From a virus (taxonomy: Duplodnaviria; Heunggongvirae; Uroviricota; Caudoviricetes): DNA of 64,000 nt. The stretch is taken from positions 51,659-115,658 of the IMG/VR virus record IMGVR_UViG_3300035698_009402. One strand, given 5' to 3'. Under the pieces are notes generated by a model. The model searched no databases, was not told the origin of the DNA, and worked only from the letters and a program-made list of their open reading frames with translations. Both the position numbers and the translations under genes were made by a program. This document shows positions 3,386 to 55,541 of the stretch, in pieces. Position 1 is the stretch's first letter. Every line of letters begins with the position of its first letter.

Positions 3386-4399
3386 TTATATTAACCGCTC
3401 TTTCCAAGTAGCAGGAGTTTTTTCTGTAATAAATTCTAAATCAAGATGATAGTCAAAAGGTTTAGCTCCTTGATTTCTAATCCATCCTACTAAAGATTTT
3501 ATAGTATCTTCAGTACTTATTTTTTGTTCATAATCTAATCTTACTTTAGCTTTACCGCTAGAACAATGAGCATGTTTTACTTCATTAGGTCTATGTTCGT
3601 AATATTCAAATTCAGGATAAATATCTAAACTTCTAGCTACAATAAATCCTAGTTCCTTTATAGTAATTGCATTCTTATCTGGTCCTATATTAAATATTTG
3701 ACCAGTTTCAAACTTTCCATCTACTAACTTCCTAATAGCTGCTACACAGTCTCTAACATCACTAAAACTTCTAGTTTGACTACCGTCACCATAAATAACT
3801 ATAGGCTTATTTTGTAATAATCTATTAGCCATAATACTTGCAACATTTCTATAAGGATCTGTGTATCTTTGTCCCGGCCCTACTATGTTGTGAGGTACTA
3901 CATGATTTACTCTAATACCATGAATACTGCTCAATAAATTTAATTGTTGTTCTGCGTGAAGTTTAGCTAATCCATAAGGGTCTGCAGGTTTGCATTTCAT
4001 ATTTTCTTTAAAAGGCGCTTCTATATCTCCATACCTAGCCATACTGCTACAGTTTATAAATAGTTCTACATTATTATGTATAGCTGCGCTAGCCACACTT
4101 ACAGTTCCTGTAAAAATACTTTCAGTTACTAATTTAGGGCTAAACACGCTTAGACCTTCATAAGGTAAACTAGCACAATGAATAACTACATCAATGTCAT
4201 TATTCATATGTTCTTTTAACTTATTTAATTGTAATATATCAAGATACTCAAAAGCTTTTAAATCTTTCAATGGTATGTTGGATTTATAACCTCCAATTAA
4301 ATTATCACAACCAGATACTGTATATCCGTTACTAATAAAATATTTTGCTAAGTTAGAACCCATTAATCCGGCTACCCCGGTAATATAAATATTTTTCAT
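3386..4399 (-). CDS. NAD-dependent epimerase/dehydratase (SDR family, UDP-sugar 4-epimerase-like)
   Basis: ITGVAGLMGSNL Rossmann motif; YGLAKLHAEQ (YxxxK catalytic motif); 337 aa. Confidence 0.7.
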   Translation of the reverse strand: MKNIYITGVAGLMGSNLAKYFISNGYTVSGCDNLIGGYKSNIPLKDLKAFEYLDILQLNKLKEHMNNDIDVVIHCASLPYEGLSVFSPKLVTESIFTGTVSVASAAIHNNVELFINCSSMARYGDIEAPFKENMKCKPADPYGLAKLHAEQQLNLLSSIHGIRVNHVVPHNIVGPGQRYTDPYRNVASIMANRLLQNKPIVIYGDGSQTRSFSDVRDCVAAIRKLVDGKFETGQIFNIGPDKNAITIKELGFIVARSLDIYPEFEYYEHRPNEVKHAHCSSGKAKVRLDYEQKISTEDTIKSLVGWIRNQGAKPFDYHLDLEFITEKTPATWKERLI

Positions 4400-4435: not shown

Positions 4436-5131
4436 TTAATCTACCTCCCTGCAATAACCTGCTTGTGCAGGAAATGCTGAAGAAACCTTATCTACATAAT
4501 TACTATGTATATTAATTCCCATTTTTTGTAGTGTTTTTCTAGTTCTGTAGTAAAGTTCAAAAATACTTACAGGATTCTCAGAATTTCTATAAAAATAAGT
4601 ACTAGTAACTTTACTATATTCAGGAACCCCCATATTAGTACCTACATCTGCAGTGTTTAATAACGTAGAATTAGGAGTTCTATAAACGGTTTTCTTAACA
4701 AGAGGTACAGTATAGGAATCAAATATCATATCAGAAAATACAGTATTCTTTTCTGGAAATATAGCTACTCCAATAACTCCTAAATTACTAGAACCTTCAC
4801 CCAGCTTTACAGCATAACTATTAGATACATTTTCATCAAATTGAAATCTTCTTTCAGTTTCACTATTTACTCTAAAACCTTTTACTATTATACTAGATTC
4901 TTTATTTATTATGTAACCTCTATTCGAAAATTTACCTGTAGATCCATTAACGACGTCTAACCCATCTACTGTTATTAAAGCTTCTATTCTAAAGTTATTT
5001 CTATTTTCTATTTTTATAGAATAATTAAATCCTTGTCTTGATTCTATATAAGTATTTCTATCTTTATTATATTCAGTAAAGGTATTATCATTATCAGTAA
5101 CAACACTAACTTTTACATTATTTTTATACAT
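4436..5131 (-). CDS. hypothetical protein
   Basis: 231 aa ORF, co-oriented, last gene of the leftward block; no recognisable motif. Confidence 0.45.
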   Translation of the reverse strand: MYKNNVKVSVVTDNDNTFTEYNKDRNTYIESRQGFNYSIKIENRNNFRIEALITVDGLDVVNGSTGKFSNRGYIINKESSIIVKGFRVNSETERRFQFDENVSNSYAVKLGEGSSNLGVIGVAIFPEKNTVFSDMIFDSYTVPLVKKTVYRTPNSTLLNTADVGTNMGVPEYSKVTSTYFYRNSENPVSIFELYYRTRKTLQKMGINIHSNYVDKVSSAFPAQAGYCREVD

Positions 5132-5225
5132 ATTTTCTCCTTTACTTCATATGTTTACTTGTATCTACATTGATACTATATTAAGTATATTTGTATTTTA
5201 ACCAGATTGCAAAATAAATTTTAAT

Positions 5226-5474
5226 TTATCTATCTTTTCGTATTTTTCTATAATGAGTCTGATCATCATTCTGCAACTTTTGTAGTCTTTCTTTACGTTC
5301 TTTAGCTACTCGTTTAGCACTTTGCAAATCTGCTAATCTTCTTTTTTGAGATTTACTAGTATAATACTTCTTATCCTTCATAGTTTGAAAGAAGTTTTCT
5401 TTTCCTAACTTTTTCATCAAAGATTTGTATGCTTTATTTACATTATTATTTCTTACTTTTACTTTCATATCCAT
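5226..5474 (-). CDS. rpsU: ribosomal protein bS21 homologue (phage-encoded)
   Basis: 82 aa very basic protein; KVKVRNNNVNKAYKSLMKKLGKE...KKYYTSKSQKRR aligns with the bS21 pattern (VxVRENE..AL.RFKR...EfYEKPS.rRKR). Confidence 0.5.
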   Translation of the reverse strand: MDMKVKVRNNNVNKAYKSLMKKLGKENFFQTMKDKKYYTSKSQKRRLADLQSAKRVAKERKERLQKLQNDDQTHYRKIRKDR

Positions 5475-5785
5475 CCAATTTCATATAAGGTCATTAGTAC
5501 TGTATCATTAGAAAATTTACCTTCTAGCTTAAATACTAGCTGTTCATTTTTTAAATATAAGAAAGTAGGGTATTTTGCTATAGAAAATTTATCGTCATAA
5601 ACTTTATTATTTACTTCAGTAGAAATTCCTAAACTTGCTAACTTATCCATTTCATATCTTACATATGTTTCTGTATTAGCATTGTAGTATCCTACTACTT
5701 TAGTTATATTTTTTTTTATTACTTTTATTTTAGACTTTTGCAAATCAGTTAAAGGTAATAGGTTTATTATAGAATCTTTATTCAT
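5465..5785 (-). CDS. hypothetical protein (thioredoxin-like fold? no CxxC)
   Basis: 106 aa ORF overlapping the bS21 gene start (ATGA); weak thioredoxin-like C-terminal pattern. Confidence 0.35.
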   Translation of the reverse strand: MNKDSIINLLPLTDLQKSKIKVIKKNITKVVGYYNANTETYVRYEMDKLASLGISTEVNNKVYDDKFSIAKYPTFLYLKNEQLVFKLEGKFSNDTVLMTLYEIGWI

Positions 5786-5834
5786 TATTTACTTTAAATA
5801 GTGTGGAAAACTATTTGTCTCCTTAAAATAAGAT

Positions 5835-5863
5835 TTGCTTACTTGCCAAAAATTTGTGATAAT
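5835..5863 (+). promoter_or_regulatory. sigma70-like promoter TTGCTT-N17-GATAAT at the divergence point between leftward and rightward gene blocks
   Basis: TTGCTT at 5835-5840, 17-nt spacer, GATAAT at 5858-5863; first rightward CDS at 5968. Confidence 0.4.
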
Positions 5864-5967
5864 TGTTTTATCGCAGTAATTTATACATTGTATAAAAAAA
5901 AGCTGCGTAAGGCAACCAGTTTTTTAAAAAATTTTTAAAACTGTTATTACAATTATCAGGAGAATAA

Positions 5968-6168
5968 ATGAATTATACTAAGCTATCAGAAGCTAAACAA
6001 TATTTTTACGCAGCTAGAGAACAAGAAATACCAATGGCTGTGGATATTCTAAATGACTATGAAGAATTACTTGACATGGGGCAAGATTTTGCGGCTAATC
6101 ATATGTTATTAGAAATTTATAAACAAGTATTACTAATTGAAAAGGATGATATTAATGTCAACACGTAA
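5968..6168 (+). CDS. hypothetical protein
   Basis: 66 aa; first rightward gene after the promoter at 5835; AGGAG-like RBS. Confidence 0.4.
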   Translation: MNYTKLSEAKQYFYAAREQEIPMAVDILNDYEELLDMGQDFAANHMLLEIYKQVLLIEKDDINVNT

Positions 6169-6451
6169 GAAAAAGAAAAGTGATTTCGTAAATTATGATT
6201 TTGGGTCTACACAAATAGCTATTAGAGAATCTAAGAATTTAGCTAGATGGAATCCTAAAATGTCGGTAGCAACAATGGAGAAAGCAAGAAACGTAATTTT
6301 TAGCGAAATAATGGAACAAGAGTATAACAAAGCAGTAAATCATATTAACACTACTTTTACTAGCATTGAGAATAAATTTTATTATAAATCAGAAAATTAT
6401 TGGGGAGATACTGTTCCTATTAGGCTAGCAAGGGAGAATAACTTTGAGTAA
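6137..6451 (+). CDS. hypothetical protein
   Basis: 104 aa ORF, overlapping-start arrangement with its neighbours. Confidence 0.4.
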   Translation: MKRMILMSTRKKKKSDFVNYDFGSTQIAIRESKNLARWNPKMSVATMEKARNVIFSEIMEQEYNKAVNHINTTFTSIENKFYYKSENYWGDTVPIRLARENNFE

Positions 6452-6656
6452 GTTTTTATTAATAGATGATAGTATTAATAATTTAATGGCTATTAAAAGA
6501 AAAATTAATGACTATGAATTAGAGGTAGAACTTGCTGCCTCTATTATGCTCAATAAAAATCTTAAAAACGATGAATTAATCGAAATGTTACATTTTCTGA
6601 TAAAAGCAGTAGAAAATAAAGAAGTTAAAAAAGTAGCAGAACTAACAAAGCACTAA
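6444..6656 (+). CDS. hypothetical protein
   Basis: 70 aa ORF, translationally coupled to the upstream ORF. Confidence 0.4.
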   Translation: MSKFLLIDDSINNLMAIKRKINDYELEVELAASIMLNKNLKNDELIEMLHFLIKAVENKEVKKVAELTKH

Positions 6657-6720
6657 ATTTTTTAAAAAACAATTTGCTATGATGTTAAAAAATTTCTATC
6701 TTATAAAGGAATAGGGAAAA

Positions 6721-7197
6721 ATGTTAGACAAAATTATAAGTGGAGGTCAATCAGGAGCTGATGTAGCTGGTCTTGATGCTGCTATAGAATTAGGCATACC
6801 TACTGGAGGTACTATGCCTAACAAATTCAAAACTGAAAATGGTAATAAACCAGAGTATGAAAAATTATATAATATGATTGAAGATGGTCATAGTAATTAT
6901 ATATTTAGAACAGAACAGAATGTTATAAATAGTTCTGGTACTTTACTATTAGGAAATATAAATAGTGCGGGTACTAAATTAACTATTAAATATTGTTCTT
7001 GGTTTAAGAAACCTTATTATATAGTACCTTTTCCTAATATTGAATTAAAGAAACTCAGTTTATCTGTTTGGATTTATCATAATAAAATTAATATATTAAA
7101 TGTAGCTGGTAATAGAGAATCTACTAATCCAGGTATATATAATTATACTAAATATTATTTACTTAAGGAGCTATATGAATTTAATAGAACATTTTAA
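6721..7197 (+). CDS. SLOG-family protein (PF12694 'putative molybdenum carrier'-like)
   Basis: N-terminal IISGGQSGADVAGLDAAIELGIPTGGTMP matches the GGQTGVDRAALDAAlelgIpcGG signature. Confidence 0.5.
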   Translation: MLDKIISGGQSGADVAGLDAAIELGIPTGGTMPNKFKTENGNKPEYEKLYNMIEDGHSNYIFRTEQNVINSSGTLLLGNINSAGTKLTIKYCSWFKKPYYIVPFPNIELKKLSLSVWIYHNKINILNVAGNRESTNPGIYNYTKYYLLKELYEFNRTF

Positions 7198-7543
7198 AGA
7201 TAAAACTATGGGATATTTAATAACTGATCCTGTAGACTATATGAATACTGATTTAGAAATCTTAATAAATGACGACTTTACTATTGCTGGACAGTATATA
7301 GGGACAGCTAATATAGTAATAGCTCAGCATTATATACATTATTATCTATATGATAATGAAGTATTTGGAGATAATTTTGCTGATTATTCTGATATTTCTA
7401 CTAAAGTATGGAATATAGTATTAAATGAATTAATTGAAGAACACTTAGTAGAAGAAACCCCTGACAGTAAAAGAAGGAATTTTATAGTAATAACCAATGA
7501 AGATTATACACCTAGTGAACCAATACAAGAATTGGTACAATAA
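7175..7543 (+). CDS. hypothetical protein
   Basis: 122 aa acidic ORF. Confidence 0.4.
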   Translation: MNLIEHFKDKTMGYLITDPVDYMNTDLEILINDDFTIAGQYIGTANIVIAQHYIHYYLYDNEVFGDNFADYSDISTKVWNIVLNELIEEHLVEETPDSKRRNFIVITNEDYTPSEPIQELVQ

Positions 7544-7913
7544 CTATAATAATAATTTTTATAACAACCTATTAGATATAGCTATTAAAGTATCTGTTGT
7601 AGATAATAAAATTCAAACCAGTAGTTGTAAATATAAAGATAAAATATTTTATATCCGTATAAATACTAGACAAGCTACTGAAGATATTCTAGAATACAGT
7701 TTATATAATACAGACTTTGAAATAGGAGACTACATAGGAACATATGAGGATAAGTTAACCATAATTATATGCCATGAGTTAGCTCATGTATATAGTTTTA
7801 TAGATGCAGGTATGTATAAACATATTGTAGAACAAAATCCTCATGGAGATAATTTTCAAAATCATTACAGAATATTACGAAACCATTTTGTAAATTATCG
7901 AGAAGCCGCCTAA
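7497..7913 (+). CDS. HExxH zinc-metallopeptidase-like (SprT-like) small protein
   Basis: IICHELAHVYSF motif; one of three small HExxH proteins in this window. Confidence 0.4.
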   Translation: MKIIHLVNQYKNWYNNYNNNFYNNLLDIAIKVSVVDNKIQTSSCKYKDKIFYIRINTRQATEDILEYSLYNTDFEIGDYIGTYEDKLTIIICHELAHVYSFIDAGMYKHIVEQNPHGDNFQNHYRILRNHFVNYREAA

Positions 7914-7959
7914 AATTAGGGGCTATAATTAATCTTGCTTATAAAAGGAGAATATAAAG

Positions 7960-8340
7960 ATGAATACAATATTACTAAATTTTGACCAACTTTTTAATGG
8001 ATGTGCTGATTGGCAGGACACTATTAGAAAAACTTTCGGACTACCTTTTAACGTAGTTAAACAAGGGAATGACTTAGTATATGAATTAAGTTTAGCTGGA
8101 TATGCTAAAGAAGATATTGAAGTTAATGCAGAAGCCGGCGTAGTTAGAATAAAAGCTTCTAAAGACGATGATGAAGTAGAATATAAACATAAAGGATTAA
8201 CTTATAGAGATATAATGTCTTCTATTCCTGTTCCTAATATGTATATAGTATCTAAAGTATCTTATAAAGACGGTTTACTGAGGATTCATTTTTCATTAAC
8301 CAATACACCTAACAAAACTAAGATTACCATTGAAGACTAA
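7960..8340 (+). CDS. small heat-shock protein (Hsp20/alpha-crystallin family)
   Basis: 126 aa; alpha-crystallin domain pattern (ELSLAGYAKEDIEVNAEAGVVRIKASK ... LLRIHF). Confidence 0.7.
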   Translation: MNTILLNFDQLFNGCADWQDTIRKTFGLPFNVVKQGNDLVYELSLAGYAKEDIEVNAEAGVVRIKASKDDDEVEYKHKGLTYRDIMSSIPVPNMYIVSKVSYKDGLLRIHFSLTNTPNKTKITIED

Positions 8341-8365
8341 GGTAGTAAATATAAAAAACCAATAA

Positions 8366-8590
8366 TACGAAGTCTATATAGGTAGACCTAGTATTTTTGG
8401 TAATCCTTATCCTGTAGGGAAAAACAGAACCAGAAGTATAGAATTATTTGAAAAGTATTTCCTAGAGAGAGTAAAAACCGATAAAATATTTGAATTAGAA
8501 GTAAAAAACTTAAAAGGTAAAATATTAGGATGTTTTTGTAGCCCTAATTTATGCCACGGAAATATAATCATTAACTATTTAGAGAAGTAA
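8366..8590 (+). CDS. DUF4326-like ORF lacking a canonical start codon
   Basis: Open frame after an in-frame TAA at 8363; YIGRPSIFGNPYPVGKN...LGCFCSPNLCHGNIIINYL matches the DUF4326 pattern; no ATG/GTG/TTG in frame. Confidence 0.3.
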   Translation, partial: YEVYIGRPSIFGNPYPVGKNRTRSIELFEKYFLERVKTDKIFELEVKNLKGKILGCFCSPNLCHGNIIINYLEK

Positions 8591-8591
8591 A

Positions 8592-9185
8592 ATGATCAGC
8601 ATTGACAGATACCATACATTAGTATTAAACGCGGACTATAGTCCTATCAACGTGTTAAAACTTGCTACTATTCCAGTGCAGGATGCTTTAACACGAGTAT
8701 TCAATGGTACCTGTCATGTAGTAGAAACTTATGATAGAACCATTAAAACTCCTAATATAGAGAATCAAATTCTTCTTCCTAGTGTTATTGCTAGGAATCA
8801 GTTCGAGCATTTACCAAAAGAAATTACTAGTAACCCAGTAGCTGAGTATCTTTATTATAGAGATCACGCGGTTTGTGCTTACACAGGTGAACCCCTTACT
8901 CTTAGAAAAGGTAGACATAATACTTTAACTATTGATCACGTAATCCCTAGAAGTAAGGGTGGTACCAATACTTGGGATAATGTAGTTGCTAGTTTAGGTA
9001 GTATAAACTTAGCTAAAGGCGATAGTATGCCTACAGGAATGTGGAAACCTAAAAAGAGAGCTTATAAACCTTCTTATTACGACCTAGTTAATGCTAGGAA
9101 AAAATTTCCTATTGTAGTATTTAATGAGAATTGGATTCCATACTTAGGTGATTGGGAAGGTGAAATTGAGGTTAGGAAACTATAA
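8592..9185 (+). CDS. HNH endonuclease
   Basis: TIDHVIPRSKGGTNTWDNVVASLGSINLAKG is an HNH motif (H-N-N/H with conserved Asp/Asn). Confidence 0.65.
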   Translation: MISIDRYHTLVLNADYSPINVLKLATIPVQDALTRVFNGTCHVVETYDRTIKTPNIENQILLPSVIARNQFEHLPKEITSNPVAEYLYYRDHAVCAYTGEPLTLRKGRHNTLTIDHVIPRSKGGTNTWDNVVASLGSINLAKGDSMPTGMWKPKKRAYKPSYYDLVNARKKFPIVVFNENWIPYLGDWEGEIEVRKL

Positions 9186-9661
9186 TGGCTATTTATAATG
9201 TAGGAAATATGTGGGATAGATTAAAAGAACCTCACAATGAAATATTTCTAGTTACTACTAATAATGTTTTAAAAACTAATGGTGAATTAGTAATGGGGGC
9301 TGGAGTAGCAAAACAAGCTACTCTACGATTCCCTAAAATAGCTTTTATTATGGGAGAAACTATCAGAAAACTACCTACTGATTATAACTTCTTTATTTTA
9401 GATGAAGTACCTTCATGGAATACTTTATATGGTCAGCATATTTATGTAGGAGCTATACAGACTAAAAGACATTATAGAGATAATAGTGATATTGAATTAG
9501 TAAGAAATAGTATTAAGAAACTAAATGAATTTGCTAATACTATTAATACTAATATCAATTGCCCTTTACCTGGAGTAGGGTTGGGGGGTTTAAAAGCTGA
9601 AGTAGTGAAAAAACTAACTAATAGTTCTCCTAATAATGTTAAATACTGGACTTTGCCCTAA
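9185..9661 (+). CDS. macro-domain protein (ADP-ribose binding/processing)
   Basis: LVTTNNVLKTNGELVMGAGVAKQA resembles NAANxxLxxGGGVxxAI; C-terminal CPLPGVGLGGL resembles FPxIGTGxxGxP. Confidence 0.5.
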   Translation: MAIYNVGNMWDRLKEPHNEIFLVTTNNVLKTNGELVMGAGVAKQATLRFPKIAFIMGETIRKLPTDYNFFILDEVPSWNTLYGQHIYVGAIQTKRHYRDNSDIELVRNSIKKLNEFANTINTNINCPLPGVGLGGLKAEVVKKLTNSSPNNVKYWTLP

Positions 9662-9759
9662 GGAGGTATATTATGAAACACAAAAAACCTATAACTAAGA
9701 AGAAAAAAGATAAAAAAAAGTCCTATAAGTAAATTATGTTATTTTATAGTTGCAGAAAA

Positions 9760-13568: not shown

Positions 13569-13955
13569 ATGGCTAAAGCACGAAATAACAAGTCCAAATA
13601 TACCTCTAACGGAGAAATTCCCACAACTAATCAGAAACTTAAGAACTCTATTCGTAAGAATAGAGGGTTTAGTTTAGAGAGTTTATCTCAATCTCAAGCT
13701 ATGAAGAATAGTATTTTAGAACTTAAAAACCCTAATCCTGAAGAGAAAAGGCTTCAGGAAAAGTTTAAGCAGGAGCGAGCTATTAGTGTAGCAGTAACTC
13801 CCTACCTTAATAGATATAGGAATCTAGGAATCACTTTTGCTGAAGCTAAGCACTCATTTCTAAAGGATACACTACCTAAGCTTATTGATAAGTATAAGGC
13901 TAAGGGTAGAAAGCTTAGAGAAGCTGAAAGAAAGTTATCAATTAGAGTTACTTAA
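13569..13955 (+). CDS. hypothetical basic protein
   Basis: 128 aa, K/R-rich; promoter-like TTGCTT-N17-TATACT upstream. Confidence 0.45.
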   Translation: MAKARNNKSKYTSNGEIPTTNQKLKNSIRKNRGFSLESLSQSQAMKNSILELKNPNPEEKRLQEKFKQERAISVAVTPYLNRYRNLGITFAEAKHSFLKDTLPKLIDKYKAKGRKLREAERKLSIRVT

Positions 13956-33199: not shown

Positions 33200-33216
33200 A
33201 AATTAAAAATTTACAT

Positions 33217-33245
33217 TTGCTTTAAGCAGTAAATTTTAATATAAT
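33217..33245 (+). promoter_or_regulatory. promoter TTGCTT-N17-TATAAT driving the tmRNA
   Basis: Exact consensus; predicted TSS ~33252 at the start of the GC-rich tmRNA region. Confidence 0.55.
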
Positions 33246-33251
33246 AATGAA

Positions 33252-33665
33252 AGTGACGTTGAGGAAATATTTGTTGAAACAAATTGAACGATAGACAACA
33301 CCTCGGGGCAGTACCGAGCGCCTCCACCACGAACACACATTCGGGTCGTAATATCGGATAGATATACTTCGAGTGTTGCTCTGATAGGTCGCAGAATGTG
33401 TGTTTTTGATGGGGGCGAAATAGAATCGACTGATATTTATTAGGTAAGTTGAGAATATTTTTTAGTCACTACGATAAACGCAAATGATAATACTTCATAT
33501 GCAATGGCTGCGTAAGTAGTCAAGCGGGGTCAGTAGCCGTACCTAGCACCAGAAATCGGCTACATTTATAATAACTCATATGGCCAGTATTTAGCAATGC
33601 GCTATCGAAGGGGCCACTCTGTCTGACAGCAGGGAAGAAATATTTGTCAAAATATTTAGATATTG
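33252..33665 (+). ncRNA. ssrA: two-piece (circularly permuted) tmRNA precursor: acceptor piece ending CCA at 33329, intervening segment 33330-33410, coding piece from 33411 with tag ORF 33480-33515 (A)NDNTSYAMAA*
   Basis: Consensus promoter 33217-33245; T-arm CTCGG-GGCAGTA-CCGAG + CGCCTCC + A + CCA at 33302-33329; downstream GGGGGCGAAATAGAATCGAC (tmRNA 5' acceptor motif, complementary to CGCCTCC); GCA AAT GAT AAT ACT TCA TAT GCA ATG GCT GCG TAA tag frame; intervening ACACACATTC/GAATGTGTGT helix; GC-rich, ORF-free; 3' boundary approximate. Confidence 0.6.
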
Positions 33666-37109: not shown

Positions 37110-37184
37110 GTCTTTGTAGCATTATGGTAATGCGTCCGCCTCTAAAACGGAAGAAAACGGGTTCAATTCCTGTCAAAGACACCA
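37110..37184 (+). tRNA. tRNA with anticodon loop CUCUAAA -> CUA (candidate amber suppressor); alternative fold has a 9-nt loop
   Basis: Acceptor GTCTTTG/CAAAGAC + A + CCA; D-arm GCAT/ATGC; anticodon stem TCCG/CGGA with a C-A closing mismatch; T-arm ACGGG-TTCAATT-CCTGT. Confidence 0.5.
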
Positions 37185-42857: not shown

Positions 42858-42948
42858 TTTGAGTAAAAGTAAAAAAAAATAAAGATTGCTATAAAGGGTT
42901 AATTATAGTATTATATCTTTAGAAATTAAAAAAAGGAAGAAATTTTTG
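42840..42948 (+). repeat. 109-bp direct repeat, copy 1 (includes the 3' 18 nt of tRNA-Gly-GCC)
   Basis: GTCTCAGTGTCCGCGCCATTTGAGTAAAAGTAAAAAAAAATAAAGATTGCTATAAAGGGTTAATTATAGTATTATATCTTTAGAAATTAAAAAAAGGAAGAAATTTTTG; identical to 43542-43650 by eye. Confidence 0.7.
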
Positions 42949-43541: not shown

Positions 43542-43650
43542 GTCTCAGTGTCCGCGCCATTTGAGTAAAAGTAAAAAAAAATAAAGATTGCTATAAAGGG
43601 TTAATTATAGTATTATATCTTTAGAAATTAAAAAAAGGAAGAAATTTTTG
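43542..43650 (+). repeat. 109-bp direct repeat, copy 2 (carries a duplicated tRNA-Gly 3' fragment)
   Basis: Perfect copy of 42840-42948 located 702 bp downstream. Confidence 0.7.
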
Positions 43651-51449: not shown

Positions 51450-51806
51450 GTGATTAACATTAGGGAAATTAGTTCAGTAACTATCTTTACTAAAGTTGCT
51501 AAAATCACCCTTAACGATCTTATCACTTTTGTAACGGGCCACGGTTATGTTCCCGGTATGGAAATAACAGTAAATTATTCTACAGTATATGAATATAATA
51601 GACCAGATGACCAAGAAGAAATAATTAGATATGGCGAAATTGACTATACTTATCAAACTTTAAAAGGCACTATGGACATTGAGACAGTATTAGAAAACTA
51701 TGTCGTCAGATATGCTCAAGGTTCTAAAGTATTTACTATTTCACATATTGATTATGAAAACGAAGTTTTCTCGGTGGAATACACAACACAAAAAAGGAAC
51801 TACTAA
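51450..51806 (+). CDS. hypothetical protein
   Basis: GTG start at 51450 with a GGAGAAG RBS, downstream of the consensus promoter 51390-51418 (the longer ORF in the track would include the promoter). Confidence 0.4.
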   Translation: MINIREISSVTIFTKVAKITLNDLITFVTGHGYVPGMEITVNYSTVYEYNRPDDQEEIIRYGEIDYTYQTLKGTMDIETVLENYVVRYAQGSKVFTISHIDYENEVFSVEYTTQKRNY

Positions 51807-52105
51807 TGACAATCGAACCTATTTCTCCAGAAGGGGCTAGACAAGCACATATTAAAAGCATCCCAGACGTAGTTATTGAAATAGTTAATAAGCTATTAAT
51901 TAAACAATCAATATCTGATACTATTTATATTAATCAAATAGATTTGGTTAGAAGTATTGTAAGCCACAGCGATATTACTGCAAATGAATTATTTGACAAT
52001 CATTGGTTGGACTTTGAAGATATTTATAAGGAAAAAAATTGGGAAGTAACTTACAGCAATGAAAATCGCTCTTCCGGTTGGAAATTTAGTAGGAAAAAAA
52101 CTTAA
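51806..52105 (+). CDS. hypothetical protein
   Basis: 99 aa; ATGA overlap; last CDS before the ORF-poor block. Confidence 0.4.
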   Translation: MTIEPISPEGARQAHIKSIPDVVIEIVNKLLIKQSISDTIYINQIDLVRSIVSHSDITANELFDNHWLDFEDIYKEKNWEVTYSNENRSSGWKFSRKKT

Positions 52106-52160
52106 CAATGATTATTGATCTGTATCAGTAAGGGAAACTCAAAATTTTTAAAATTTCATT

Positions 52161-52189
52161 TTGCTTAAAATGGTAAAATTTAGTAAAAT
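52161..52189 (+). promoter_or_regulatory. promoter P1 TTGCTT-N17-TAAAAT (first of three tandem promoters)
   Basis: Spacer AAAATGGTAAAATTTAG shares AAAATTTAGTAAAAT with the promoter at 56190. Confidence 0.45.
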
Positions 52190-52195
52190 ATAAAA

Positions 52196-52257
52196 ACTGA
52201 GAAAAACAAGGAAATCAAAACTTTCAAGGGAAATGACAAAAAAATAAAAATTCACAG
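52196..52257 (+). ncRNA. predicted short transcript T1 (~60 nt) from promoter P1
   Basis: Between the P1 -10 and the P2 -35; no ORF; A-rich with terminal CTGAG.../...TCACAG. Confidence 0.25.
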
Positions 52258-52286
52258 TTGCTTGAAGGTCAAAAATTTCTTATAAT
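52258..52286 (+). promoter_or_regulatory. promoter P2 TTGCTT-N17-TATAAT
   Basis: Full consensus 97 nt after P1. Confidence 0.5.
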
Positions 52287-52292
52287 ATAAAA

Positions 52293-52368
52293 ACAGTGAA
52301 CGGAAGAATGAAAAATAGCTTGAGGGCTTTTAGTAATCACCGAAAGACAAAAAACAAGAATTTCACTG
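52293..52368 (+). ncRNA. predicted short transcript T2 (~75 nt) from promoter P2
   Basis: Terminal 7-bp pairing CAGTGAA/TTCACTG; no ORF; ends at the P3 -35. Confidence 0.25.
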
Positions 52369-52397
52369 TTGCTTCAAACTATAAAATCTTATATAAT
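52369..52397 (+). promoter_or_regulatory. promoter P3 TTGCTT-N17-TATAAT heading the long GC-rich non-coding block
   Basis: Full consensus 111 nt after P2. Confidence 0.5.
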
Positions 52398-54378
52398 GTT
52401 TAAATGATGAGCAGAAACGAAAAACTACTCTGCGGAGAGTGAGTACCACCAAGTTCATAACGGCAAGATACTTAATATTATGCAAATAAATTAGATCAGT
52501 TGTCTGTGATATCAGATGGATGGAGCAAGTATCGGAATATCGGCGGGACCATGAGGGGCCAGGTGTTCAAAGAATTACTAAGTCTAGTGTTGTTAATACA
52601 GACTATAAAGGTTATGATTAACGTAGGTGAATGACGGGTTCGATTCCCGCCAACTAACGATGGTACAAACATCGCTAGTGCCGGAGCAAAAAACTGCAAA
52701 AATTCAAAAATGCGGCAGCATAAATCAGTGAAAAGGGCTAGAATAAGCCTGCGCTAGTACTTAGTAGCTGTTAAAGTGTTTACATGCAAGGTTAGCACTT
52801 TATTAAAAAAAGACGAACAATCGAACTTGTCTGCCTTTCTATAGAAGGTTATAAGTATCCTGCAATAAACGTAGCAGCAATCTTTATTATAAGCCTTTCT
52901 CCGACTAAGGGAAAGCGAATAAAAGTTTACCTCAGAGTCCGAAGAAACTGGGGCACAGATTACAAATGTTGAGCAGCAATTGCGCTCCATTTAAAGAGCG
53001 CGGGTAGGACAAGTTAGATAAGTCAGAAGTCTCATAAACTTCAGGAGTCAGGAGCAGAACCGGCACCCGCAACCAATTACGGAGAGGTAGTTTAAGAAAA
53101 AACATGCGTAAAAATCCAGTATCGAATCTGGTCTTTCCACCAAAATTGTATAGTAAAATTAATGGTAAAACTTTGACTTAATTGTTACGGTATGCTGCTT
53201 CAAGACCAGCCTATACGATGCTATAAAATATGCGTCAGGAATTAGTTTAAAGGAAGAATGCTCTGCCGTATTAGGAGAGATGATATATCGAAAATGTCAT
53301 TCCTGGCTGTATTAACAAATTAATAGTCGTTAGCGTAAACAGGCAAGAGGAAAGGTCTCGAAATCGGGCAAGATAGTATTTATATTATTTTCGGGTAAAG
53401 TAGGATCATACGCCCAAAGCTACACACAGTTGCAAATGTGACCTTTGTAGAACGGAATACTCCGGTTATTAATATTTTTATGTTAGGGTAGTTTAAAGGT
53501 AAAAACGTATTTATTGGGTCGGACCGATAAATAAAATGACAGTGCCATAGCTGTCCCCAAACACCAATTAACGCTTAGTAGCTTAATGAAAAGCTCTCTT
53601 AACAGAGAGATGATGGCTCACACCCATCCTTCGCGGCCAAATACTGTTATTGGTAGTTACAATTACCAGTAATGAAGCAAGGTGTAACCCTTGCGAGAGA
53701 TAGGTTGGCAGTTGAACCTCAACTAACTGCAAGGTAATACTGTTGCCTACTCAACAGTAGTTTTTAACTTTAACCAACTCGCCTTGGGAATAGCATCCCA
53801 CTTCTCACGAAGTGAGACAAGGTGGTAACATATATAAAATAAGCGGCGCACGCTTTATCAGTTAGACGTGTTTAATGTTCTGGAATACGCCGTTCTCCTT
53901 AAATAGTTATCCGTTTTCGTGTGGCCCGATAATCACACCACTAATTTTGCATTCTTTATCTGCAATAAAAATAAAGATAAGGCGTAGCATATCACGAAAG
54001 AACATCGAAGCTAGTTTTGTATGCGATACTAACTTCAAGAGTTTATGTTCATAGCACTAGGGGTGCATAGTATTCTCGCCCTAAGAATAGCGAACACCAG
54101 TTAGGTAAACAGGGACGCAATATATAGCGATTAGTTCTTAATGTTGGTTGAAAGAAAAAGCCTCTATCAACGCCTAAACCAATTAAAATTACTAGATTTA
54201 TCGGTCTAGTAAGAGTATGACTGAACAACAGATGTTAGAGTCTGTAAGGTATAATCGAGGTTAACTACCTGCCTAGTAAGTAAACGATTAGTTTGAGCGA
54301 AATGACAGAAAATATCTAATAGCTCGATAAAAGTGAAACCAAATCTTTTTATTCACCCCCATTTAACAAGGTTAAAAA

Positions 54379-54621
54379 ATGAAATATATTATTGTATTAC
54401 TACTTTTATTAGGATTATCGGCATGTAAAGATAAAGCTATTCCTATATATTCAGTAAGTGAAATAGTTTTTACTGTTTTAGATAATAATAAAGCACAAAT
54501 ACAACGTATTTTTTGTAAAAGCGATTATTGTCATTATACTGTTAGAATAATAACTAAAGACAAGTATAACAATGTAACATATAAAATGTTAACATTTTAT
54601 GAACATGAATTAAAAAATTAA
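54379..54621 (+). CDS. small lipoprotein-like ORF inside the non-coding block
   Basis: MKYIIVLLLLLGLSACKD lipobox; AT-rich island within the GC-rich block. Confidence 0.35.
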   Translation: MKYIIVLLLLLGLSACKDKAIPIYSVSEIVFTVLDNNKAQIQRIFCKSDYCHYTVRIITKDKYNNVTYKMLTFYEHELKN

Positions 54622-55095
54622 AAAAAGAAATGGCGCGTGTGCCAGAAGATTATGGTGACATAATTCAAAGGGATAAGTCCTTCCCGTGTTACTGCAAAGT
54701 AGCATAAAGCACGCAAGTCCCAATTTGTCGATGAACCAATCATCGAAGTATCGGTTAAAACGGTACTAGGGGCAGACAGTTAAGTAGATAGTTCTTTGGT
54801 AAGAATGTGGTGTAGGTAATACTGGCATCTAATAGGAGGTGGAACTCCGGCTAACAATCCAACTTAACAAAAGCTGACTTAATAAGGGATAGATACGGCG
54901 ACAGTCCTTGATTGTCTCAATAATGTGCGAGTGATAATAAACGAGTGCGAGTATCAATATTAGAGGTATACGTTAGAAGCGCAATCTTAAAATATAGTTG
55001 AGTAGGTGGATAACTGAAAAGCATGAGGTGTGTAGTATTTTGTACCTAACAAGGTATGAAGCGACAGAGGTAGCACATCTTTCGGCACATAACCC

Positions 55096-55171
55096 TTGCG
55101 GGTAGGCTAACGGTATAGCCATTTGTCTTTGAAACAAACGTATGCGGGTTCGATCCCCGTTTCGCAAACCA
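55096..55171 (+). tRNA. tRNA-Gln (anticodon UUG), U1; isolated inside the ORF-poor block
   Basis: Acceptor TTGCGGG/TTCGCAA + A + CCA; D-arm GGCT/AGCC; perfect anticodon arm TTTGT-CTTTGAA-ACAAA; T-arm GCGGG-TTCGATC-CCCGT. Confidence 0.65.
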
Positions 55172-55501
55172 TAAAAAACGCAAAGACTACCTCGATAAAT
55201 AACGAAAGTGCTTTAATGCAACACCGTAAGGAATGTTGTCGCTCAAAGATCGCAAGTTGGAGAGTGTTATTAGTACGAAAATCATAAGAGTTAGCGACTC
55301 CTAACAGCTGTAAAAGGTTGATGAAAATAGGACTAATGAGTAGTTATTTATGACAGTGCGCAAGCGATGCACTTTAAAAAACGAAAGCATAGAAGATAGA
55401 TAGTCAGCGGAAGCGGTTATCTGGATAAGCAAGGAACCTCGTAAGGGATAATCTTGTTAAGACTTCTACTAAAAGGTATAATCTCAGCCTTTATTAAAAG
55501 A

Positions 55502-55528
55502 CCTTCTGATTCGTCGGAGGGTTTTTTT
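55502..55528 (+). terminator. rho-independent terminator closing the GC-rich non-coding block
   Basis: Stem CCTTC/GGAGG, 9-nt loop, then GTTTTTTT; CDS at 55542 follows. Confidence 0.5.
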
Positions 55529-55541
55529 GTACCTAAAATAA

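Follow-up and report, generated by a model that had tools for sequence, protein, structure and literature searches.

The 64,000-nucleotide (nt) stretch analysed here, termed the window, comes from a Caudoviricetes virus (IMG/VR record IMGVR_UViG_3300035698_009402, positions 51,659 to 115,658). It carries three stacked promoter-like boxes, P1, P2 and P3, ahead of a region poor in open reading frames (ORFs). We conclude that the boxes probably form a promoter stack, which would have arisen by tandem duplication of a promoter together with its leader and would drive a high output of non-coding RNA. A preliminary description of this DNA had offered two readings, an array of independent small RNA genes or a promoter stack giving nested 5' ends to the long downstream RNA. 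The second fits the data: the promoter class of the boxes is strand-specific and genome-wide, the array recurs in two related genomes, no terminators separate its units, and the next promoter of the class stands 3.8 kilobases (kb) further on.

The promoter boxes and the promoter class of the phage

The array and the leader that follows it comprise the following features, all on the plus strand.

52136 to 52160: A/T-tract, UP-element-like region upstream of P1, with conserved ACAAAA..AAAATTT tracts in the alignment of ten units from three genomes
52161 to 52189: predicted promoter P1, TTGCTT-N17-TAAAAT; predicted start at about 52196; weight-matrix score 45.5
52190 to 52257: T1, the A-rich initial transcribed segment of P1, probably no gene of its own; its 3' part doubles as the UP-like region of P2
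52258 to 52286: predicted promoter P2, TTGCTT-N17-TATAAT; predicted start at about 52293; weight-matrix score 50.2, the highest in the window
52293 to 52368: T2, a paralogous leader copy (52293 to 52352) followed by the A-tract of P3; fold z = -0.97
52369 to 52397: predicted promoter P3, TTGCTT-N17-TATAAT; predicted start at about 52404; weight-matrix score 47.6
52404 to 52460: 5' leader stem-loop of the long RNA, with AUGAGC (52407 to 52412) pairing with GUUCAU (52453 to 52458) and an inner hairpin, CUCU-GCGG-AGAG

Both sequence reading and a pattern search placed the boxes at 52161, 52258 and 52369, as the preliminary description had them, and the start-to-start spacings of 97 and 111 nt were confirmed. 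The -10 hexamers at 52184, 52281 and 52392 (TAAAAT, TATAAT and TATAAT) match TATAAT at five or six of six positions, and the spacer of 17 base pairs (bp) between -35 and -10 is the optimal spacing for a sigma-70-type promoter. A repeat finder independently returned three 74-nt copies with 64-70% identity and the same spacing. Tandem Repeats Finder detected nothing in the array because the copies are too diverged. The segments after the boxes had been described as free of ORFs, which is essentially true: merely two unconserved 35-codon ORFs with GTG starts touch them, at 52148-52255 on the minus strand and 52296-52403 on the plus strand. The latter, in T2, was rejected as a gene, its frame being broken by insertions and deletions in the related contig L053 (described below). 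A T4 MotA-dependent middle promoter was also considered and rejected. The TGCTT core of a MotA box is centred at -30, 11-13 bp from the -10, whereas the same core here lies 17 bp from the -10, in the ordinary -35 position.

The motif recurs across the window. Its exact form was found seven times in the 64 kb against 0.12 expected, six of the seven on the gene strand, and with one mismatch allowed there were 19 matches against 5.0 expected. A weight matrix was built from 13 window sites, including the three boxes; it returned 17 sites on the plus strand, four of them outside the training set, and none on the minus strand, with 0-1 in shuffled sequences. An A-tract, UP-element-like region upstream of TTGCTT is common to all plus-strand sites. 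The -10 ends 12-50 nt ahead of the transfer RNA (tRNA) genes tRNA-Cys (site 25575) and tRNA-Asn (28739), of the transfer-messenger RNA (tmRNA; 33217), and of ORF starts at 13569, 20648, 38103, 44999 and about 56246. Judged from this distribution, TTGCTT-N17-TAAAAT/TATAAT is the general strong promoter of the phage and no local oddity, and we read the boxes as real promoters because the placement and strand bias of the class match those of real promoters. Few sites in the window score as well as the three stacked ones (though these are in the training set). The weight-matrix scan found no other site of the class between 52369 and 56190.

Two further observations concern the promoter class. Identical plus-strand promoter 29-mers occur at 42886-42938 and 43588-43640, 702 nt apart, together with identical minus-strand 29-mers, so that a recent direct repeat around two tRNA-Gly genes is indicated. 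Separately, L053 (position 11552) and a second related contig, L054 (position 1988), carry a promoter of the same class with a built-in terminator, a compact terminator-promoter overlap in which the -35 lies in the hairpin loop, between the two arms, and the spacer is taken up by the T-run.

The array in related genomes and competing explanations

Relatives were reached through the phosphoesterase gene 1.2 kb upstream of the array, whose two best homologues (67% and 65% identity) lie on L053 (Logan SRR18337858) and L054 (ENA ERZ27275036), both syntenic metagenomic contigs. The ORF-free region is shared with them at about 70% nucleotide identity, from the array through the GOLLD RNA in L054 and from the array to the contig end in L053. 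At the syntenic site there are three promoter units in L053 and four in L054, compared with three in the window. The orthologue of P1 is at L053 12789 and L054 2749, that of P2 at L053 12909 and L054 2844, and that of P3 at L053 13018 and L054 3050. At an overall divergence of about 30%, the -35 and the -10 hexamer are intact and 17 bp apart in every one of the ten units. Measured in bits per position across these units, conservation is 1.75 for the -35, 1.78 for the -10, a mean of 1.20 for the upstream 30 nt and no more than 0.91 for the spacer. In each of the three genomes the sites cluster at the array locus only, with no cluster at the other loci examined. The junction ...CCGAAAGACAAAAAAC... 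is found in the second unit of all three genomes, which suggests one old duplication, plus another in L054; the pairwise identities of the units do not cleanly separate orthologues from paralogues.

The transcribed parts of the units are of two kinds. The first is short, A-rich and variable, and includes T1 of the window, unit 1 of L053, and units 1 and 3 of L054. With a fold energy of -0.7 kcal/mol (z = +1.26), T1 is unstructured, and its equivalents vary in sequence and length. The second kind is a module of about 57 nt, CAGUS-GACGGAA-GAAAAA-hairpin-UUAGUA-CYGAAAGAC, whose profile gives exactly two matches per genome, both inside the array, in the second and the last unit. In the window these are 52293-52352 (T2) and 52405-52460, and the last-unit copy forms the 5' end of the RNA running on downstream. 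The homology check against L053 and L054 thus gave a divided result: the T2 module is kept, and T1 shows no conservation beyond its promoter parts.

The leader stem-loop begins 2-4 nt from the predicted 5' end. Its closing helix is CAGUC/GACUG in the last unit of L054 (L054_P4), where four of the five pairs are changed on both sides, and the inner hairpin stems vary with pairing kept (CUCU/AGAG, AGCU/GGCU and UCC/GGA). The complementary ends that had been noticed in T2 are real (CAGTGAA at 52294-52300 and TTCACTG at 52362-52368), and they are there because T2 is a duplicate of the leader stem-loop. The T2 copies of the window and L053 have the 3' strand of the closing helix about 20 nt further downstream, past the A-tract of the next promoter; in unit 2 of L054 the closing complement is absent. 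On this comparison, T2 is a duplicated leader and does not appear to be a separate gene family.

In the proposed mechanism, a cassette of about 100 nt, consisting of a promoter and the first part of its transcript, would have been duplicated in tandem to give three copies. Each would carry a promoter of the host sigma-70 type, in which a UP-like A-tract region precedes a TTGCTT -35, and 17 bp separate this -35 from a TAWAAT -10. Because the three promoters are co-directional and have no terminator between them, initiation at each box would yield nested 5' ends near 52196, 52293 and 52404. The transcripts would enter about 3.3 kb composed almost wholly of RNA genes, in the order leader, structured domain, tRNA(CAU)-like gene with other tRNA-like elements, manA-like segment, small ORF and GOLLD, and would read through to GOLLD. 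The unit would end at the terminator at 55502-55529, with a weaker internal stop possible at 53738-53768. Stacking would multiply polymerase loading and thereby raise the output of stable RNA. The leader stem-loop would most likely protect the 5' end or act in cis on the transcript or the elongating polymerase.

The other reading of the preliminary description has each promoter make its own RNA of at most 80 nt (T1, T2) by termination or processing, as a small RNA, a decoy or a processing substrate. Every segment does have its own promoter, and T2 offers a recognisable module kept in all three genomes, ends that pair in the window and L053, a fold z of -2.9 in L053, and an inner hairpin that varies with pairing kept. 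Against this, no terminator was found in 52100-52500, either by a tool scan or by a separate scan for hairpins followed by T-runs, and hence none follows any segment. T1 is unstructured and its equivalents differ between genomes, the window T2 folds no better than shuffled sequences, the end-pairing is missing from L054_P2, and the 3' half of the T2 'stem' overlaps the UP-like region of P3. Since T2 itself duplicates the leader with which the long RNA begins, independent small RNA genes are an unlikely account of the array. Release of a small RNA by processing is possible for T2 only, with no positive support. The segments had also been said to end exactly at the next -35; the units do abut, but no terminator or other 3'-end signal is present.

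Another reading would make P3 the only box that matters and treat P1 and P2 as decaying duplication relics without a selected function. The copy number differs among relatives (3, 3 and 4), pointing to ongoing duplication, and the T1-type segments evolve freely. However, decay is hard to reconcile with hexamers and spacing that are intact in ten of ten units despite the divergence of about 30%, and with weight-matrix scores of 45.5 for P1 and 50.2 for P2 versus 47.6 for P3. The junction CCGAAAGACAAAAAAC common to the second units argues for long retention, and we consider the relic explanation improbable. That the repeats are not promoters at all, being instead an origin, protein-binding iterons in an A+T-rich bent region or RNA motifs in a transcript started upstream, is very unlikely. 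The locus has a G+C content (GC) of only 23%, its A-tracts are phased, and a unit of about 100 nt is directly repeated three times, as might be expected of such elements, but the same spaced two-hexamer motif stands singly before tRNAs, the tmRNA and ORFs with a gene-strand bias, and conservation peaks at the two hexamers, not over the whole repeat. A replication origin at the array was rejected, as the cumulative GC skew is monotonic and takes no turn here.

Several points weigh against a promoter stack feeding one long RNA unit. The -35 hexamer TTGCTT matches TTGACA, the Escherichia coli consensus, at three of six positions, so the earlier term 'consensus' fits the -10 boxes and not the -35. 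A generic sigma-70 scan listed none of the three boxes because TTGCTT shares just TTG with TTGACA, and recognition of the boxes by the host sigma-70 is assumed. The scores of the boxes are partly circular, since the boxes are in the training set of the matrix. The locus is known from only three independent genomes, the window, L053 and L054. T2 is kept as a recognisable module in all three, and this retention hints at a role beyond spacing. Finally, many transcripts may be halted ahead of GOLLD by the conserved hairpin and T5 run at 53738-53768, which may divide the 3.3 kb into more than one unit.

The downstream RNA block and its setting

Between 52400 and 54378 there is no ORF of at least 80 codons on either strand, just short unconserved ones, and the GC is 35-46% versus about 30% in the flanking genes. 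Rfam returned only fragmentary matches over this region, even at E-values up to 10. The following features were delimited from here to the end of the putative unit, all on the plus strand.

52461 to 52990: structured RNA domain conserved in L053 and L054 (about 70% nucleotide identity), with GC of 36-44%
53000 to 53075: tRNA(CAU)-like gene with a non-canonical T-arm, from a cloverleaf alignment with seven relatives
53572 to 53636: tRNA-like element with a 4-nt 'anticodon' loop; Rfam tRNA 28.2 bits against a gathering score of 29
53738 to 53768: candidate internal intrinsic terminator, a hairpin followed by TTTTTAAC; folding free energy (dG) -7.5
53769 to 53930: conserved structured block, CCUUGG...CAAGG enclosing CACUUC/GAAGUG, with 74-77% identity to L053 and L054
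54101 to 54345: manA-like segment, 72% identical to L054 4835-5077; not called by Rfam in the window
54379 to 54621: 80-codon ORF with a lipoprotein-type signal, MKYIIVLLLLLGLSAC (lipobox by eye), embedded in the RNA cluster
54630 to 55490: GOLLD RNA (Rfam part 55023-55490), RF02032 with 169.7 bits against a gathering score of 150; the 5' domain runs from about 54630
55502 to 55529: intrinsic terminator closing the unit, right after GOLLD; CCTTCTGATTCGTCGGAGGG then TTTTTTTG, dG -8.8, seven T

The domain at 52461-52990 had no Rfam match at E-values up to 10. From the three sequences, RNAalifold proposed 29 pairs for it, 12 of them with both sides changed; in one helix, GATACTT/AAGTATC of the window becomes GGTGGTC/GACCATC in L054. 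In the block at 53769-53930, CACUUC/GAAGUG of the window reads AACUUC/GAAGUU in L054 (by eye). The T-run TTTTTAAC of the candidate internal terminator is unchanged in L053 and L054, and the hairpin ahead of it is a different one in each. Fold z-scores from sliding windows gave no useful signal, as even the bona fide GOLLD 3' half scored near zero.

In the tRNA(CAU)-like gene, the anticodon stem covaries, the loop is CUCAUAA, and the T-arm reads GUCAG-GAGCAGAA-CCGGC in place of a T-psi-C loop. ARAGORN and Rfam miss 53000-53075 because the T-arm lacks the T-psi-C loop; the L054 orthologue (3826-3899) is called tRNA-Met, and the window copy is uncalled. The orthologue of the element at 53572-53636 (L054 3976-4041) scored 32.6 bits. 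Allowing introns and relaxing the thresholds in ARAGORN added no convincing tRNA. As a side observation, the same odd T-loop (GGCAGAA) occurs in three GC-richer and otherwise unrelated IMG/VR contigs (L058, L066 and L067). At 53084-53143 a 60-nt mini tRNA-like element was noticed by eye; it has a 7-bp acceptor stem, D-arm-like and T-arm-like hairpins and a 3' ACCA, is without an anticodon arm, and is poorly conserved in L053 and L054.

The L054 counterpart of the manA-like segment overlaps a manA match (RF01745) at L054 4921-5091, with 59.1 bits against a gathering score of 55.2. The manA RNA of L054 lies directly upstream of a small ORF. The 80-codon ORF of the window is not homologous to the 74-amino-acid (aa) ORF at the same place in L054. 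The GOLLD region is 71% identical to L054 5341-6229, where the orthologue scored 160.3 bits, and in the window a tRNA-Gln is embedded in GOLLD at 55096-55171. Of all local folds in the 6 kb scanned, the strongest (z = -6.0) lies at 54625-54774, outside the Rfam model, presumably at the start of the variable GOLLD 5' domain.

The window is A+T-rich (about 30% GC) and comes from a large phage-like genome; beyond about 6 kb into the window, nearly all ORFs of at least 100 codons are on the plus strand. Thirty tRNA genes were called in the window, none of them for Met, and the auxiliary genes include RtcB and NAD synthase. One further RNA gene belongs to this setting.

33213 to 33564: permuted tmRNA (two-piece, alphaproteobacterial-type), preceded by a top-scoring promoter copy, site 33217

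The INPHARED phages gave no DNA match to the region or to the surrounding 24 kb. The 99-aa protein encoded just upstream (51806-52105) had no homologue in IMG/VR or in a set of 5.8 billion proteins, and no exact record. Among 33 IMG/VR loci reached through the phosphoesterase (at most 53% identity), nothing was shared from 52100-54900; one of them shares the GOLLD 3' half and nothing else. That half was likewise the sole shared part in 19 GOLLD-bearing IMG/VR loci. The patterns CAGCANAAATCNGTGAAA and GGCGGGACNANGAGGGGCNA gave chance matches only in IMG/VR, and the pattern TAAGTC...AGTCTCATAAAC was rejected as a signature of the long RNA, as it is that of the D and anticodon arms of a tRNA(CAU). 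The scan of a single metagenome returned the JGI contig L098 and one chance match, nothing else; L098 is identical to L054 across their 8.5-kb overlap. The locus is absent from the contigs with the next-best phosphoesterase or Band_7 homologues (L100-L111 and L116), and the promoter motif is absent from L103-L111, the contigs scanned for it. The Band_7 gene also led to more distant relatives; these have T4-like genes and lack both the locus and the motif.

Two observations lie apart from the array. At 37110-37184 lies a tRNA that scores 61.4 bits and that ARAGORN labels 'Pyl'. Its anticodon is CUA, that of an amber suppressor, which may hint at read-through or recoding of TAG in the phage. In L116, an unrelated phage contig, a TROVE/Ro60 gene adjoins a 3-kb ORF-free tRNA island (4574-9663), and that contig has its own promoter consensus, TTGACTT-N15-GCGTATAAT.

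Comparison with known systems and biological meaning

The statement that such an arrangement had not been described for phages was too strong, since in T7 three strong early promoters, A1, A2 and A3, stand in tandem (bioRxiv 10.1101/262279). The T7 promoters serve the host polymerase, as those of the window would. As in the window, three tandem co-directional promoters with no gene between them feed one downstream unit, which here is a predicted one. Unlike the boxes described here, the T7 promoters drive protein-coding early genes and help to pull the genome into the cell, whereas the window has about 3.3 kb of mostly RNA genes. In addition, the units here are clear duplicates that carry a copy of the transcript leader, and their number varies among relatives. 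The spacing of A1 to A3 is reportedly about 100 nt, as Dunn and Studier are said to have described in 1983.

The rrn P1/P2 promoters are stacked promoters with UP elements that give a very high output of structured untranslated RNAs with embedded tRNAs, and a conserved leader follows them. The array shares with them the stacked UP-type promoters, the structured RNA cargo with tRNAs and the conserved leader; it differs in having three to four promoters instead of two, and a cargo of GOLLD, tRNA-like elements and RNAs of unknown kind. No boxA-like antitermination sequence was noticed in the leader by eye, without a formal test. By analogy, a high output of stable RNAs is most likely the purpose of the array. 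In the tRNA region of phage T4, tRNAs are co-transcribed with the stable RNAs C and D, whose function is unsolved, and then processed. Compared by description only, this is likewise a phage cluster of tRNAs and stable RNAs, but it is small and has neither GOLLD nor a triplicated promoter.

GOLLD genes lie near phage tRNA islands, sometimes with a tRNA in the linker, and one studied example is downstream of a Met-tRNA (PMC12286853, a cryo-electron microscopy study). The window agrees with this pattern, as its GOLLD contains a tRNA-Gln and stands 2 kb downstream of the tRNA(CAU)-like gene. Neither promoter architecture nor co-transcribed partner RNAs are mentioned for GOLLD in that study (PMC12286853). 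The definition of the GOLLD family does not extend to the triple promoter or to the conserved RNA domain that precede GOLLD here.

A more far-reaching reading, which we put forward tentatively and regard as doubtful, is a non-coding 'super-operon'. Here GOLLD would be produced alongside a previously undescribed class of conserved, structured RNA (about 0.6-1.5 kb, from 52404 to about 53770, without an Rfam match and with tRNA mimics), and the cassettes would be a selected dosage device. The leaders could also act on their own, for example in cis, in antitermination or as stabilisers, or as small RNAs once released.

As a promoter finding alone the promoter stack is ordinary: tandem strong promoters are of an already known, textbook kind, and it is the cargo that adds the interest. 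The large phage RNAs of the GOLLD kind have an unsolved function, and their expression and partner RNAs are poorly documented; the locus offers a testable, promoter-defined candidate transcription unit. The strongest promoter cluster of the window faces a structured RNA, tRNA mimics and GOLLD, which suggests that these RNAs are needed in large amounts, possibly together. The array would also be a clean natural example of promoter strength tuned by duplication of a promoter-leader cassette, with three copies in two phages and four in a third.

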